Source: a virus. Taken from it: a stretch of DNA of 11,830 nt. Made by a program: the position numbers and the translations under genes. The stretch lies in the IMG/VR virus record IMGVR_UViG_3300006057_000043. One strand, 5' to 3'. The notes beneath the pieces were generated by a model. It searched no databases, had not been told where the DNA came from, and saw nothing but the letters and a program-made list of their open reading frames with translations. This document shows, piece by piece, positions 856-4,644 of the stretch (position 1 is its first letter; each line of letters opens with the position of its first letter).

Positions 856-889
856 TGGTGGCCGGCCAGGCTTTGACACCTGACCGACC
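856..889 (-). ncRNA. tRNA-like minihelix H2 (11-bp stem, loop UGUCAAAG, 3' ACCA)
   Basis: RNA GGUCGGUCAGG UGUCAAAG CCUGGCCGGCC ACCA. 11 bp including two G-U pairs. Immediately 3' of the CUA tRNA. Confidence 0.5.
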
Positions 890-890
890 A

Positions 891-966
891 TGGCGCCCCT
901 CGTGGGACTTGAACCCACAACCAAGACTTTTAGGGAGTCCTGCTCTGCCAGTTGAGCTAGAGGAGC
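891..966 (-). tRNA. tRNA, anticodon CUA (amber/UAG-reading; putative suppressor), CCA encoded
   Basis: 76-nt cloverleaf: acceptor GCUCCUC/GAGGGGC, D-arm GCUC-AACUGGCA-GAGC, anticodon arm GGACU-CCCUAAA-AGUCU, T-arm GUGGG-UUCAAGU-CCCAC, G73, CCA. Positions 34-36 are CUA. Position 33 is C rather than the usual U. Confidence 0.6.
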
Positions 967-967
967 T

Positions 968-1001
968 TGGTCGCCGGCCAGGATTTGACCCCTGACCGGC
1001 G
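968..1001 (-). ncRNA. tRNA-like minihelix H3 (11-bp stem, loop GGUCAAAU, 3' ACCA)
   Basis: RNA CGCCGGUCAGG GGUCAAAU CCUGGCCGGCG ACCA. Confidence 0.5.
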
Positions 1002-1002
1002 T

Positions 1003-1036
1003 TGGTGCCGGGGCAGGCTTTGACTCCTACCCCAGC
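1003..1036 (-). ncRNA. tRNA-like minihelix H4 (11-bp stem, loop AGUCAAAG, 3' ACCA)
   Basis: RNA GCUGGGGUAGG AGUCAAAG CCUGCCCCGGC ACCA. Confidence 0.5.
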
Positions 1037-1037
1037 A

Positions 1038-1109
1038 TGGCTCCCCTGGCAAGTCGTGACCTTGCGTCTCCTCACTGATGTGAGGCGCTCTACTCTGAGC
1101 TACAGGGGA
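1038..1109 (-). ncRNA. degenerate tRNA-like RNA (72 nt, U1-A72, G73-CCA, non-canonical anticodon and T loops)
   Basis: Acceptor UCCCCUG/CAGGGGA. D-arm GCUC-AGAGUA-GAGC. Anticodon-position hairpin CCUCAC-AUCA-GUGAGG (4-nt loop). T-position arm GCAAG-GUCACGA-CUUGC. Ends G-CCA. Confidence 0.35.
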
Positions 1110-1149
1110 ATGGTGGGTGGCCCGTGCTTGCCCACGGACCACCCAGGAC

Positions 1150-1551
1150 TTACACCGCGACCCCCTTCCTGAGGATCGTCTCCCGCTCCCAGCGCGAGTC
1201 GCTGGTGTCCCGAAGGGCGAGGGGGAGGGTGTCGAGCGCAGCGCCGATGTCGTCGTCGGCGAACAGGGCGATGGCAGTCAGCTCATCACCGATGTCGGGC
1301 TCGTAGAACGGGGTGACTGGAAGCCCCTGGCCGGCGGCGTAGTCGAAGAACTGCCGAAGCTGCTCTTCGTTCTCCACGGCGAGGAGGACCAGCGAGTTCG
1401 AGGCGGCTTCCCACTCTCGGACCATGTGTTGCTGTTCACTGGCAAACGCGATGCCAGCGTGGGTGGCCATGGTGGCCTGGTACCCAGGGCTCAGATCCTG
1501 ACGGGTCAGAACGTAGAGCTTGGGTCGGTGAGTCTAGGTGAACGTTTCCAT
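1150..1551 (-). CDS. PTH2-like (peptidyl-tRNA hydrolase 2 / Pth2-fold) protein; in-frame TAG at 1534-1536 (codon 6)
   Basis: From ATG 1551 the frame reads METFT*THRPKLYVLTRQDLSPGYQATMATHAGIAFASEQQHMVREWEAASNSLVLLAVENEEQLRQ... This is collinear with the Pth2 motifs KMVIVVRxDL...AAQxxHAA...WE...KVVVKV.DEE.L. The stretch KLYVLTRQDL lies between the TAG and the next ATG (1470), so it is translated only if the TAG is read through. The promoter at 1596-1624 places the transcription start upstream of ATG 1551. Terminates with TAA. Confidence 0.45.
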
Positions 1552-1595
1552 GATGATGGGATGTCCTTGGGGTTGTGGTTGGTGGAACGAGAGAG

Positions 1596-1624
1596 AACCT
1601 AGCACGGCCCGAGGGCCGTGTCAA
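1596..1624 (-). promoter_or_regulatory. sigma-A-type promoter: TTGACA-N17-TAGGTT
   Basis: Minus strand reads TTGACA CGGCCCTCGGGCCGTGC TAGGTT, with the spacer ending GTGC as in the other copies. Predicted start about 1585-1590, roughly 35 nt before ATG 1551. Confidence 0.45.
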
Positions 1625-3618: not shown

Positions 3619-3993
3619 CTAGGCCTCCTGGGGGTTGAGCAGGACGGCGCCGCAGAGGGCGGACAGTTCCTCGATGCCGACGCGCCTGGTGTTGTAGTAG
3701 GGCGACAGGGCGGCCATCATGCGGTCGCCGGCCGGGGCGTTGATCGTGTGGACCATGATCTGGCCGACCCAGTAGGGGTTCTCGTGGTAGGCCGTTTCCT
3801 CCAGCCAATTCACGATGGGCTCGATCGTGTCGTCATCCCCGAGGTCGTGGTCGAGCCACAGCTCGTCGAGGCGCAGGCCGGCGGAGCGCAACACGACCAT
3901 CAACTGCTCGCCGAACCAAGAGGTCCGGGCGTGGTTGACCTCACCCTCTAGCTTGAGGGTCCGCTCATCGTCGATGACCAGGATGCGCTTCAT
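3619..3993 (-). CDS. receiver-like (CheY-fold) domain protein, CPR-like (cyclic-phosphate-processing receiver family)
   Basis: MKRILVIDDERTL...LWLDHDLGDDDT...VNWLEE...VHTINAPAGDRM. Matches the ILxDDER / LDHDLG / WL..E / HSxNPxGR pattern of the phage-borne, RNA-repair-associated receiver family. Leaderless promoter. Ends in TAG. Confidence 0.55.
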   Translation of the reverse strand: MKRILVIDDERTLKLEGEVNHARTSWFGEQLMVVLRSAGLRLDELWLDHDLGDDDTIEPIVNWLEETAYHENPYWVGQIMVHTINAPAGDRMMAALSPYYNTRRVGIEELSALCGAVLLNPQEA

Positions 3994-4183: not shown

Positions 4184-4319
4184 ATGTGCCGCCAACTTCT
4201 GCCAGTAACCCCTTGCGGTGTTCAAGAACCCGGCCGTTGGGGCGACGCTCCTCAAACATGCCCCCTTCCCAGGGGACTTCAACATAGCTCCAGTATCTAG
4301 TCGTGGGGCCATGCTACAG

Positions 4320-4394
4320 CAGGGGTGCCAGGAATCGAACCTGGTCGTGTATCAAGAGTTTTGGAGACTCTCCGGCTACCTCAGCCTCACCCCT
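4320..4394 (-). tRNA. tRNA-Trp (anticodon CCA)
   Basis: Acceptor AGGGGUG/CACCCCU. Anticodon arm AGAGU-CUCCAAA-ACUCU. T-arm CCAGG-UUCGAUU-CCUGG. G73. No CCA. Atypically long variable segment. Confidence 0.5.
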
Positions 4395-4429
4395 TCGGGT
4401 TACTGCTGGCAGCTCCGGCGTCTACTGTG

Positions 4430-4502
4430 TCGGGCGGGTGGGATTCGAACCCACGACCACTCGGTTCCGAGCCGAGTACGCTGACCGCTGCGCTACCGCC
4501 CG
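4430..4502 (-). tRNA. tRNA-Pro (anticodon CGG), C1-G72, A73
   Basis: Acceptor CGGGCGG/CCGCCCG. D-arm GCGC-AGCGGUCA-GCGU. Anticodon arm CUCGG-CUCGGAA-CCGAG. T-arm GUGGG-UUCGAAU-CCCAC. C1-G72 with A73 is the bacterial proline identity signature. Confidence 0.65.
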
Positions 4503-4615: not shown

Positions 4616-4644
4616 ACCGTAGCAGGGCCACGGAGCCATGTCAA
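4616..4644 (-). promoter_or_regulatory. sigma-A-type promoter TTGACA-N17-TACGGT for the 4-tRNA array
   Basis: Minus strand reads TTGACA TGGCTCCGTGGCCCTGC TACGGT GCTCCAC ATG. Confidence 0.5.

Follow-up and report, generated by a model that had tools for sequence, protein, structure and literature searches.

A Pth2-like phage gene behind an in-frame amber codon and its neighboring suppressor tRNA: a putative read-through module

The 11,830-nt virus sequence IMGVR_UViG_3300006057_000043 of IMG/VR (hereafter the window, meaning the whole stretch of DNA that was analyzed) carries a Pth2-like gene whose reading frame is interrupted by an amber codon (TAG) after five codons. A tRNA gene with the anticodon CUA, which would decode UAG, lies nearby on the same strand. 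The locus raises the question of how the full-length protein could be made and whether the tRNA is the means. It is probable, on the comparative evidence given here, that the two are parts of one phage module, in which a stop-gated gene for a Pth2-fold ester hydrolase is opened by the suppressor tRNA through programmed read-through. A regulatory circuit of this kind was the original prediction for the window, made from its letters alone. Comparison among phages supports it, and every refutation proposed with the prediction turned out in its favor when checked, with the qualifications that gene and tRNA appear to share one transcript and that the basis is computational only.

All coordinates are those of the window, and the strand of the gene is the minus strand. 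As predicted, the first ATG of the Pth2-like frame (1551-1549) opens METFT-TAG-THRPKLYVLTRQDL... (stop codons are written within the peptides throughout). With read-through, the proposed full coding sequence is 1551..1150 (-), with its TAA stop at 1152-1150. Gene callers give the gene (P0001) as 106 amino acids (aa) from ATG 1470. Between the TAG (1536-1534) and this ATG lies THRPKLYVLTRQDLSPGYQAT, and the residues after the TAG are T-H-R-P-K-L-Y-V-L-T-R-Q-D-L-S-P-G-Y-Q-A-T, then Met. No ATG, GTG, or TTG is present in this interval, since 1150..1470 is the sole open reading frame (ORF) in the Pth2-like frame in the program-made ORF list of the window. The list thus bears out the claim that no in-frame start upstream of ATG 1470 captures the Pth2 N-terminus.

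The protein encoded after the TAG scores 26.1 bits in the Pfam family PF01981 (PTH2), above the cut-off of 23 (E = 1e-5), with residues 5-75 aligned to profile positions 2-78. The match begins at the K of KLYV, in agreement with the prediction that the Pth2-like N-terminal strand and helix lie after the TAG. A family profile was also matched to archaeal and human Pth2 chains of the Protein Data Bank (PDB) along their full length, with E = 3e-8 to 1e-3. In M. jannaschii Pth2, residues 1-7 correspond to the KLYV strand, and the PDB Pth2 proteins align with KLYV from their residue 1 onward. In an AlphaFold2 (AF2) model of the post-TAG protein (predicted local distance difference test, pLDDT, 90.8; predicted template modeling score, pTM, 0.82), KLYVLTR forms a strand at residues 5-11 and helix 1 spans residues 16-33, with Met22 (ATG 1470) in mid-helix. 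A product from ATG 1470 would, on this model, miss strand 1 and half of helix 1. The top 13 Foldseek matches in the PDB were all Pth2 (probability 1.00, template modeling (TM) scores 0.65-0.74, root-mean-square deviation 2.4-3.3 Å over ~110 residues).

The gene product is therefore predicted to be a Pth2-fold peptidyl-tRNA ester hydrolase-like enzyme, which would hydrolyze the ester bond of peptidyl- or N-acyl-aminoacyl-tRNA. It had been called a tRNA-processing-related enzyme, which is loose wording for a protein with the fold of peptidyl-tRNA ester hydrolases. In work on the Sulfolobus enzyme, the catalytic Lys reportedly lies at the start of strand 1 and an Asp and a Thr in a D-x-G-x-T region. 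In the phage subfamily, K5, H25, E78-P79-D80, and T86 are invariant. The D region of the subfamily aligns to that of PDB 2zv3 with a one-residue offset and an indel (a sequence alignment, with no side-chain superposition). The subfamily is essentially phage-specific, with 318 confirmed matches in IMG/VR and 2 in a set of 185,579 species, each represented by a single genome. Among 1.84 billion representative proteins scanned, there were 243 matching clusters at 50% identity (E <= 1e-10).

A TAG at codon 6 could also be a nonsense mutation or an error, in which case nothing, or only a 106-aa product, would be made. The ORF reported by gene callers and the atypical C33 of the tRNA (see below) are in keeping with a dead gene or an artifact. 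A sequencing error had been named as one way in which the prediction could fail. This is not so, as three assemblies (the window, Logan SRR5581436, and ENA ERZ27247944) agree at every base of the leader region. A megablast of the window against INPHARED gave no match, and relatives were for this reason found through the protein (L numbers denote the loci collected). The in-frame TAG is kept in L003/L004 (71% identity), which read AAGGAGAG-N6-ATG GTC TAG CTG CAC... (MV-TAG-LHRNKLYV), and in L005 (65% identity), which reads MSTEFT-TAG-THRDDLRSKLYC (MSTEFT-TAG-THR...KLYC). Gene callers likewise report a shortened 106-aa ORF in these relatives. The AAGGAGAG of L003 is a Shine-Dalgarno (SD)-like motif 6 nt before the leader ATG. 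The corresponding spacing is long in the window (AAGGA to ATG 1551), and the motif is clearer in relatives such as L003 and in cultured phages.

The 18 codons from the K to the internal Met differ mostly by synonymous changes. There are 8 synonymous and 1 non-synonymous codon differences between the window and L003, 7 and 3 between the window and L005, and 5 and 2 between L003 and L005. To judge by these differences, the stretch from the TAG to ATG 1470 evolves as coding sequence in the Pth2-like frame, under purifying selection. The TAG itself is kept in these diverged lineages, with synonymous drift on its 3' side. Homologues do not start after the TAG, which had been given as a possible refutation; the first Pth2 strand follows the TAG and precedes the next start codon. 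With three identical assemblies, a TAG kept in lineages of 65-74% identity and in ~90 more distant ones, selection upstream of ATG 1470, and a 106-aa product that would be without strand 1 and half of helix 1, a dead gene or an artifact is scarcely credible and is for the most part refuted by the comparison among loci.

The prediction had proposed looking in homologous phages for a sense codon where the TAG stands, and one was found in P0007. This normal-start homologue, verified at the DNA level, reads MFQP-IKEGD against MHL-TAG-IKPGD, with Pro at the aligned position. Its N-terminal length is that of the gated homologues, and a tRNA-CUA gene lies 15 nt downstream of it. Gln at the TAG position, apparent in M-x-Q-I/N... 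homologues, was dropped as a candidate, as the DNA of P0004 and P0006 has TAG and the Gln comes from translation under an alternative code. The public gene calls for L145 (P0004) and L146 (P0006) give the leader TAG as Q, which is a false Gln signal in protein databases. The leader TAG alone appears to have led to the choice of code 15 for these short contigs.

The architecture was then explored across the family. A total of 135 loci were collected (the window, two mycobacteriophages, and contigs from ENA, JGI, Logan, and IMG/VR), 117 of them non-duplicate. In each, the frame was walked upstream from the codon aligned to the K of KLYV. An ATG, 0-9 further codons, a stop, 0-13 codons, and the KL[YIF]V[IV]TR strand were found in 95 of the 117 (81%), and in none of these 95 is there a canonical start between the leader stop and strand 1. 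All 95 have an in-frame ATG leader of <=12 codons; such a leader precedes 8.5-10.6% of the other long ORFs that have TAA or TGA as their upstream boundary. The leaders span 1-10 codons, and the commonest has two (MT or MK, 51/95). The leader stop is TAG in 92, TGA in two, and TAA in one. TAG is the rarest terminator of the long ORFs in the same loci (106/802). The GC content of the leader-stop loci ranges from 0.23 to 0.64, and an SD-like motif precedes the leader ATG in 21 of the 41 with GC >= 0.35, against a background of 15%.

A suppressor tRNA is present in 53 of the 58 leader-stop loci with >=2 kb on both sides. Suppressor tRNAs are on the strand of the gene in 77 of 78 cases, at a median distance of 596 nt, and in many loci the suppressor tRNA is the sole tRNA present. 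A TAG leader stop is paired with the anticodon CUA in 67 loci and with UUA in 1 locus, a TGA leader stop is paired with UCA in 2 (L015; L095/L107), and a mismatched anticodon was found in 0 loci. The stop codon and the neighboring anticodon thus covary, and, as read from these sequences, the leader stop and the suppressor tRNA are a family-wide module. The tRNA is also kept in 13 of 19 normal-start loci, and the link between enzyme and tRNA therefore appears more basic than the gate.

The base after the stop differs as well. At the +4 position, the 92 leader TAGs have 66 A, 23 G, 3 C, and 0 T (purine 89/92), and the 106 TAGs that end long ORFs of the same loci have 31 A, 29 G, 22 C, and 24 T (purine 60/106). 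Leader and terminating TAGs differ here both in purine (Fisher test, p = 4e-12) and in T (p = 1e-7), with the caveat that the +4 base is also constrained by a conserved Ile, Val, or Thr after the leader stop. Of the five terminating TAGs in the window, three have T at +4; the leader TAG has A. A purine, especially A, after UAG is said to be the classical favorable context for amber suppression from the context-effect work of Bossi and Miller. A conserved in-frame stop, coding sequence under selection to either side of it, and a context that favors read-through, the marks of programmed read-through, are all found in the comparative loci.

Leader-stop copies occur in a second setting. In L055:1936-2691, L070:1715-2452, L074:3243-3986, and L088:3244-3996, a leader TAG and a copy of the Pth2-like N-terminus (MT-TAG-INHKLIIITRRDLHPGYQAV) are followed by a NUMOD3 homing-endonuclease-like protein. 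These ORFs lie just upstream of the intact Pth2-like gene and look like a homing endonuclease insertion that duplicated its 5' end.

If the whole phage read TAG as a sense codon (code 15-like), the TAG of this gene would be one of many. Phage recoding of TAG to Gln with suppressor tRNAs is well documented (bioRxiv 10.1101/2021.08.26.457843). There are also recoded-looking relatives, L007 (TAG) and L095 (TGA), besides the two short contigs for which code 15 was picked. The window, at 11.8 kb only a part of the genome, does not resemble a code 15 sequence. It has one in-frame TAG, and TAG ends at least 5 of its ~15 plausible genes. The prediction had counted 7 of 18; the recount is of the same order, and the MVP-like and HNH genes named there do end in TAG. 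In the 865-aa MVP-like gene, the terminating TAG is followed by a terminator hairpin. No other conserved domain of the window is interrupted by TAG. In 63 loci of >=6 kb, internal stops were counted in long ORFs with TAG read through, and with TGA and TAA as controls. Internal TAG, found in 20 of 136 long ORFs, was rarer than internal TGA (38 of 150) and internal TAA (82 of 186), and in most loci nothing indicates that TAG has been reassigned globally. Coverage by ORFs under alternative codes was dropped as a measure, as the removal of any stop inflates coverage. L095 is clearly TGA-recoded: 5 of its 6 long ORFs contain internal TGAs (18 in all), its leader stop is TGA, and it carries a tRNA-UCA. 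L007 is possibly TAG-recoded, yet its Pth2-like gene has an ordinary start. The fixed place of the TAG, 0-13 codons before strand 1 in 92 loci, is not what random recoding would be expected to give. Global recoding is thus a very unlikely explanation for the leader stop.

Read-through fusions at two junctions of the window, 3619/3618 and 2147/2137 (-), were considered and rejected, since both resemble normal junctions between genes, with a separate SD and ATG at each. At 3619/3618, the TAG is directly followed by ATG, and suppression would fuse a cREC_REC protein to an 85-aa protein. At 2147/2137, the TAG is followed by 2 codons and ATG, and suppression would fuse a 131-aa protein to a ferredoxin. 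These in-frame TAG junctions may be due to chance, at about one in three each. Read-through of the window's at least five TAG terminators would add 9-91 codons.

The window tRNA was identified by ARAGORN, which reported 12 tRNAs, including 891-966 (-) with the anticodon CTA at position 34 and no pseudogene flag. The Rfam tRNA model RF00005 gave 56.8 bits on 891-966 against a gathering score of 29. Its minimum free energy fold is a canonical cloverleaf with CUA at 34-36 in a 7-nt anticodon loop, CCCUAAA. Thus, both the predicted CUA anticodon and the predicted C33 are present. The tRNA starts 184 nt 3' of the Pth2-like stop codon; the ~600 nt given earlier holds when measured to where the gene starts. 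Its nearest relatives are the suppressor tRNAs of other Pth2-like loci (<=81% identity), not the other tRNAs of the window. It has the discriminator G73 and is without a close non-suppressor paralogue in the loci. It is a candidate suppressor that would insert an amino acid at UAG. The consensus anticodon loop of the suppressor tRNAs is CUCUAAA (53/93) and U33 is present in 91 of 93. In the window tRNA, A37 is present and U33 is replaced by C33, a base that among the 93 unique suppressor tRNAs is seen at this position only in the window and L067 (2/93). This lowers confidence in the efficiency of suppression, not in the identity of the tRNA.

Two other identities for this tRNA were rejected. 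ARAGORN labels it tRNA-Pyl, for which a short D-loop without G18G19, a 6-bp anticodon stem, a 3-nt variable loop, and a pylS partner are expected. Its D-loop is 8 nt long and contains GG, its anticodon stem has 5 bp and its variable loop 5 nt, and its T-loop reads TTCAAGT; no PylS-like gene was found in the window. The label reflects the CUA anticodon only. An initiator-like tRNA-CUA that reads UAG as a start would have an anticodon stem with three G-C pairs in a row and no pairing at 1:72. Here the stem is GGACU/AGUCU, G1-C72 is paired, and the SD is placed for the leader ATG. L005, the closest GC-rich relative, has two different tRNA-CUA genes (2157-2231 and 2352-2423); it also encodes a second, longer Pth2-domain protein (L005:5541-6218, 225 aa, PF01981 E = 4.5e-8). 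Among the other tRNA calls of the window, a plus-strand tRNA-Arg from ARAGORN, 4416-4486 (+), overlaps tRNA-Pro 4429-4502 (-), and Rfam backs only the minus-strand gene (70.8 bits). A tRNA-Trp, 4319-4394 (-), barely passes in Rfam (33.2 bits against a threshold of 29) and has an unusual D region.

The same leader TAG precedes the homologue in cultured phages, where SD motifs are clear before the leader ATG. Ralstonia phage RsoM2USA (L137) reads AAAGGAG-N7-ATG TTG TAG ATT and Serratia phage BF (L141) has the leader MTH-stop; in both, the Pth2-like gene is absent from the GenBank annotation. In Cronobacter phage GAP32 (L139), with the leader MAQ-stop, GAP32_397 is truncated. Salmonella phage Arash (L142) has the leader ML-stop and gp84c truncated to 50 aa; its tRNA at 3810-3884, labeled Phe, has the anticodon CUA by ARAGORN. 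The leader TAG accounts for the missing or shortened gene in these four annotations. Acinetobacter phage ME3 has the leader MT-stop, and a tRNA with the anticodon CTA is ~420 nt upstream of it. Xanthomonas phage XacN1 (L138) reads GAGGA-N8-ATG AAG TAG and is annotated from a later ATG. Homologues are also present in jumbo phages of Erwinia, Yersinia, Pectobacterium, and Klebsiella. A blastn search with the Arash tRNA for a tRNA-CUA in GAP32-like phages gave only XacN1-type relatives, whole genomes not having been scanned. In cluster C mycobacteriophages, tRNA-CUA lies 3' of an annotated "peptidyl tRNA hydrolase." Its annotated GTG start is directly preceded by ATG TAG in Cane17 (L002:2936-2980) and by GTG TAG in Phabba (L001:2934-2980). 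The -10 element of a TTGACA...TAnnnT promoter ends 6-7 nt before this start-stop pair, which suggests that the transcript may be leaderless and start with a start codon and an amber codon.

Several observations weigh against programmed read-through by the neighboring tRNA. No suppressor tRNA was detected in 5 of the 58 well-flanked loci, nor in the 1.9 kb of the TAA-leader locus L044. The figure of 53 in 58 is a count among leader-stop loci, and its weight depends on how often unrelated phage loci carry such tRNAs. With C33 in place of the near-universal U33, the window tRNA may be a weak suppressor. L095/L107, one of the two TGA-leader lineages, comes from a phage that looks globally TGA-recoded, and this case of covariation is therefore weaker evidence for a specific gate. 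In cluster C, the GTG right after the TAG is the annotated start, and the gate may be bypassed there. Lastly, the codon after the stop is ATT, ATA, or ATC, which are near-cognate starts, in 58 of 95 loci.

This last observation would fit re-initiation, in which the leader is a mini-ORF. The ribosome would end at the stop and restart on the next, non-canonical codon, with the tRNA uninvolved. The leaders are very short, mostly of 2 codons, a GTG follows the leader stop in 3 relatives, and in Cane17 the GTG that follows the TAG has an SD-like GAAGG at a suitable spacing. Against these stand the poor or impossible starts after the stop in other loci (ACT in the window, CTG in L003, ACT in L005, and elsewhere AAA, GGT, AGC, GAA, GGC, and ACA). 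Where Ile follows the stop, the corresponding Ile of normal-start homologues is an internal residue (MFQPIKEGD; IKxGDKLY). Re-initiation also leaves unexplained the covariation of stop and anticodon, the choice of TAG in 92 of 95 leaders although TAA is the common stop, and the presence of a suppressor tRNA beside the gene in 53 of 58 loci. Re-initiation is considered unlikely, and read-through by the suppressor tRNA is preferred.

The elements of the window that surround the gene and the tRNA are collected in Table 1.

Table 1. Positions of the gene parts and RNA elements of the putative module in the window.
Feature	Position	Strand	Basis
Promoter-like TTGACA-N17-(TGC)TAGGTT, inverted repeat in spacer	1596..1624	-	Motif search; putative function
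Shine-Dalgarno-like AAGGA, 12 nt upstream of ATG 1551	1564..1568	-	Read from sequence
Leader METFT (ATG GAA ACG TTC ACC), five codons	1537..1551	-	Read from sequence
In-frame amber TAG, codon 6; next codon ACT (+4 = A)	1534..1536	-	Read from sequence
Pth2-like coding part after TAG, 127 codons + TAA	1150..1533	-	Pfam PTH2, PDB profile, AF2, Foldseek
Internal ATG, Met22 of post-TAG protein; gene-caller start; within helix 1	1468..1470	-	ORF 1150..1470, AF2 model
13-bp GC-rich hairpin ending ACCA, directly 3' of Pth2-like stop, without U-run	1111..1147	-	Fold, -27.3 kcal/mol, z = -3.85
tRNA-like cloverleaf with acceptor stem, D arm, T arm, and G-CCA end; no anticodon	1038..1109	-	Fold
Two acceptor/T-arm minihelices, each ending ACCA	1003-1036 and 968-1001	-	-23.2 and -24.5 kcal/mol, z -4.6 and -5.5
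Candidate amber suppressor tRNA, anticodon CUA, loop CCCUAAA (C33), G73, encoded CCA	891..966	-	ARAGORN, Rfam
Third minihelix, directly 3' of tRNA-CUA	856..890	-	Fold, -24.6 kcal/mol, z = -6.2

The prediction had placed a dedicated promoter ahead of the gene. The TTGACA-N17-TAGGTT sequence is present at 1624-1596 as one of three copies of a motif, and a strict sigma-70 scan called no promoter there. The motif, TTGACA-N17-TGCTAnnnT, is found on the gene strand of the window at 1624, 3332, and 4644, each time with an inverted repeat in the spacer. The copies at 4644 and 3332 head two tRNA arrays and the copy at 1624 heads the Pth2-like/tRNA-CUA unit. The same motif lies upstream of the homologous gene in L003 and L005 and is also present in Cane17 and Phabba. 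It is this repeated motif of actinobacterial type that makes 1624-1596 a putative promoter. Motif, terminator, and fold scans of the window found no promoter motif and no U-rich terminator between the Pth2-like gene and tRNA-CUA, and the hairpin after the stop codon has no U-run. The gene and the tRNA therefore appear to be co-transcribed from the putative promoter. If so, the gate would report the function of the suppressor (its maturation, its charging, and its competition with RF1) and not an independent transcriptional input.

The hairpin after the stop is kept in L003 and L005 (CCTGGGTGG...CCACCCACCATTCC). As it has no U-run, it is judged not to be a terminator and is probably an mRNA 3'-end, processing, or stability element. 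Between the gene and the suppressor tRNA lies the tRNA-like cloverleaf, for which no Rfam match was found. It is kept in three GC-rich loci (window 1038-1109, L005:1614-1686, and L015:2170-2248), with compensatory changes in 10 of 22 pairs. In place of an anticodon arm it has a stem (6 bp in the window, 6-8 bp overall) capped by a tetraloop. The three 34-35-nt minihelices ending (A)CCA flank tRNA-CUA, and similar elements are present in L005. They may be processing signals, decoys, or enzyme substrates. Elements in L044 are possibly degenerate mini-tRNAs, one of them with a UUA-like loop.

A second gene family appears to be gated in the same way. In 11 loci (L042, L054, L063, L075, L080, L082, L085, L086, L110, L125, and L129), a protein of ~190 aa is encoded directly upstream of the Pth2-like gene. 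It matches phrog_14850 (function unknown) and shows H...HD-like motifs; a Pfam search with it gave no match. The phrog_14850-type gene carries its own M-x(1-6)-TAG leader. In XacN1, ORF364 is a fusion of a Pth2-like domain with an HD-like (phrog_14850-type) domain, behind ATG AAG TAG. Thus, the gate seems to be applied to a small, functionally linked set of genes. The rest of the window has an RNA-repair or stress flavor, including the tRNA arrays and the tRNA-like decoys. On the minus strand it encodes a cREC_REC domain protein (3619-3993), the 865-aa MVP-shoulder/SPFH-like protein (4714-7311), and a metallophosphoesterase (9210-10064). An N6/N4 DNA methylase (8479-9213), a 4Fe-4S ferredoxin (1874-2137), and a cysteine-dioxygenase-like phrog (10054-10608) are also present on this strand.

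The locus thus has a position-specific, conserved stop before a whole catalytic domain, coding constraint on both sides of it, a matching tRNA, and a Pth2 fold. From these features we infer read-through as the actual mechanism, and likewise a purpose for the gate. The putative promoter would give one transcript with the gene, the tRNA-like element, the minihelices, and tRNA-CUA. Ribosomes would start at ATG 1551, make Met-Glu-Thr-Phe-Thr, and reach UAG at codon 6. Where RF1 wins, only the pentapeptide would be released. Where charged tRNA-CUA wins, translation would go on through the KLYVLTR strand to an enzyme of 133 residues. As only suppression would give the enzyme, its output would be proportional to the efficiency of amber suppression in the infected cell. 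With the gate at the extreme N-terminus, a failed pass would cost only a short peptide, which is cheap and harmless. Read-through at natural TAG terminators would bring ribosomes into 3' regions, with more stalling and peptidyl-tRNA drop-off. In the role that we prefer, the enzyme would recycle the peptidyl- and N-blocked aminoacyl-tRNA by-products and be made in step with suppression. Negative feedback, with the enzyme acting on the acylated suppressor, is an equally compatible role.

The Pth-like nature of the gene and the dominance of two-codon leaders (51/95) also recall the bar minigenes of phage lambda, which are toxic in pth-deficient Escherichia coli. By analogy, a di- to penta-peptidyl-tRNA would drop off at the stop and act as a sensor or sink for Pth, and downstream translation would follow by drop-off and resumption. 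We know of no mechanism by which a ribosome resumes in frame after drop-off, and the preference for TAG and the covariation with the anticodon would be left unexplained. This explanation is highly improbable, and suppression by the tRNA is again preferred.

If read-through is confirmed, the lock would be a leader of 1-10 codons with a matching stop, and its output would read the activity of the suppressor against that of the release factor. Such a translational servo loop would be conserved from actinophages to enterobacterial jumbo phages. The Pth2-like gene would also be systematically missing or truncated in phage annotation. A systematic error of annotation is exposed, with the gene absent or truncated, the tRNA mislabeled, or code 15 assigned over one codon. 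The module would supply a specific natural target for phage suppressor tRNAs of open function. Its occurrence across diverse phages and hosts points to a dependency between suppression and peptidyl-tRNA hydrolysis that is outside current models of phage translation takeover. It can be directly tested in the cultured phages Arash, ME3, GAP32, and XacN1 and in cluster C mycobacteriophages. A compact lock and key of tRNA and leader that works across hosts could serve as an orthogonal translational switch. Full-text literature searches, incomplete in coverage, found no earlier description of the module.

The putative module can be compared with several known systems. The archaeal and eukaryotic Pth2 enzymes (PF01981; PDB 2zv3, 3erj, 1q7s, 1wn2, and 1xty) share its fold and match its profile over the full length. 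Unlike them, the phage subfamily has SPGYQ in place of the GKGK loop and an EPD...TA motif, the clade of the window has an extra C-terminal helix, and the activity is a predicted one. The lambda bar minigenes and pth(rap) are similar in that a two-codon phage ORF and its stop are linked in function to peptidyl-tRNA hydrolase. Those minigenes stand alone, whereas here the mini-ORF is in frame and continuous with the Pth-like gene.

The prfB gene (RF2) is likewise a translation-factor gene with an early in-frame stop (UGA) whose fate sets the output. There a +1 frameshift senses the gene's own product, whereas here the frame would be kept and the signal sensed would be a tRNA encoded next door. 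In Q-beta A1 and MuLV gag-pol, partial read-through of a stop also yields a needed product. In these, host near-cognate tRNAs give a C-terminal extension, whereas the window has a dedicated candidate suppressor and a stop before a whole domain.

In crAss-like, Lak, Jade, and Agate phages, suppressor tRNAs decode in-frame stops (Borges et al., bioRxiv 10.1101/2021.08.26.457843; Yutin et al., PMC7886860). They resemble the present case in having a phage suppressor tRNA that acts on in-frame stops in a standard-code host, proposed as a regulatory switch. In those low-GC gut phages, in-frame stops are numerous throughout the late, structural, and lysis genes, and the codon is underrepresented among terminators. 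Here, a single N-terminal stop at a fixed position is found in one or two tRNA-related families of otherwise standard-code phages with GC of 0.23-0.64, it is physically linked to the tRNA, and TAG is still a frequent terminator. The main recoding paper (bioRxiv 10.1101/2021.08.26.457843) does not mention a hydrolase or Pth2.

Orphan suppressor tRNAs of the same kind (tRNA-CUA) are present in cultured large phages with the standard code, namely XacN1, ME3, and the cluster C mycobacteriophages. XacN1 was reported to have two tRNA-CUA genes, and extension of its ORFs past amber stops gave no target (PMC5852040). The target proposed here lies upstream of an annotated start, whereas that search went past annotated stops and would for this reason have missed it. 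We lean slightly toward the view that many orphan suppressor tRNAs of standard-code phages are not agents of genome-wide recoding and are dedicated keys to a small amber-locked regulon, made up of the Pth2-like hydrolase and often an adjacent or fused HD-like protein.

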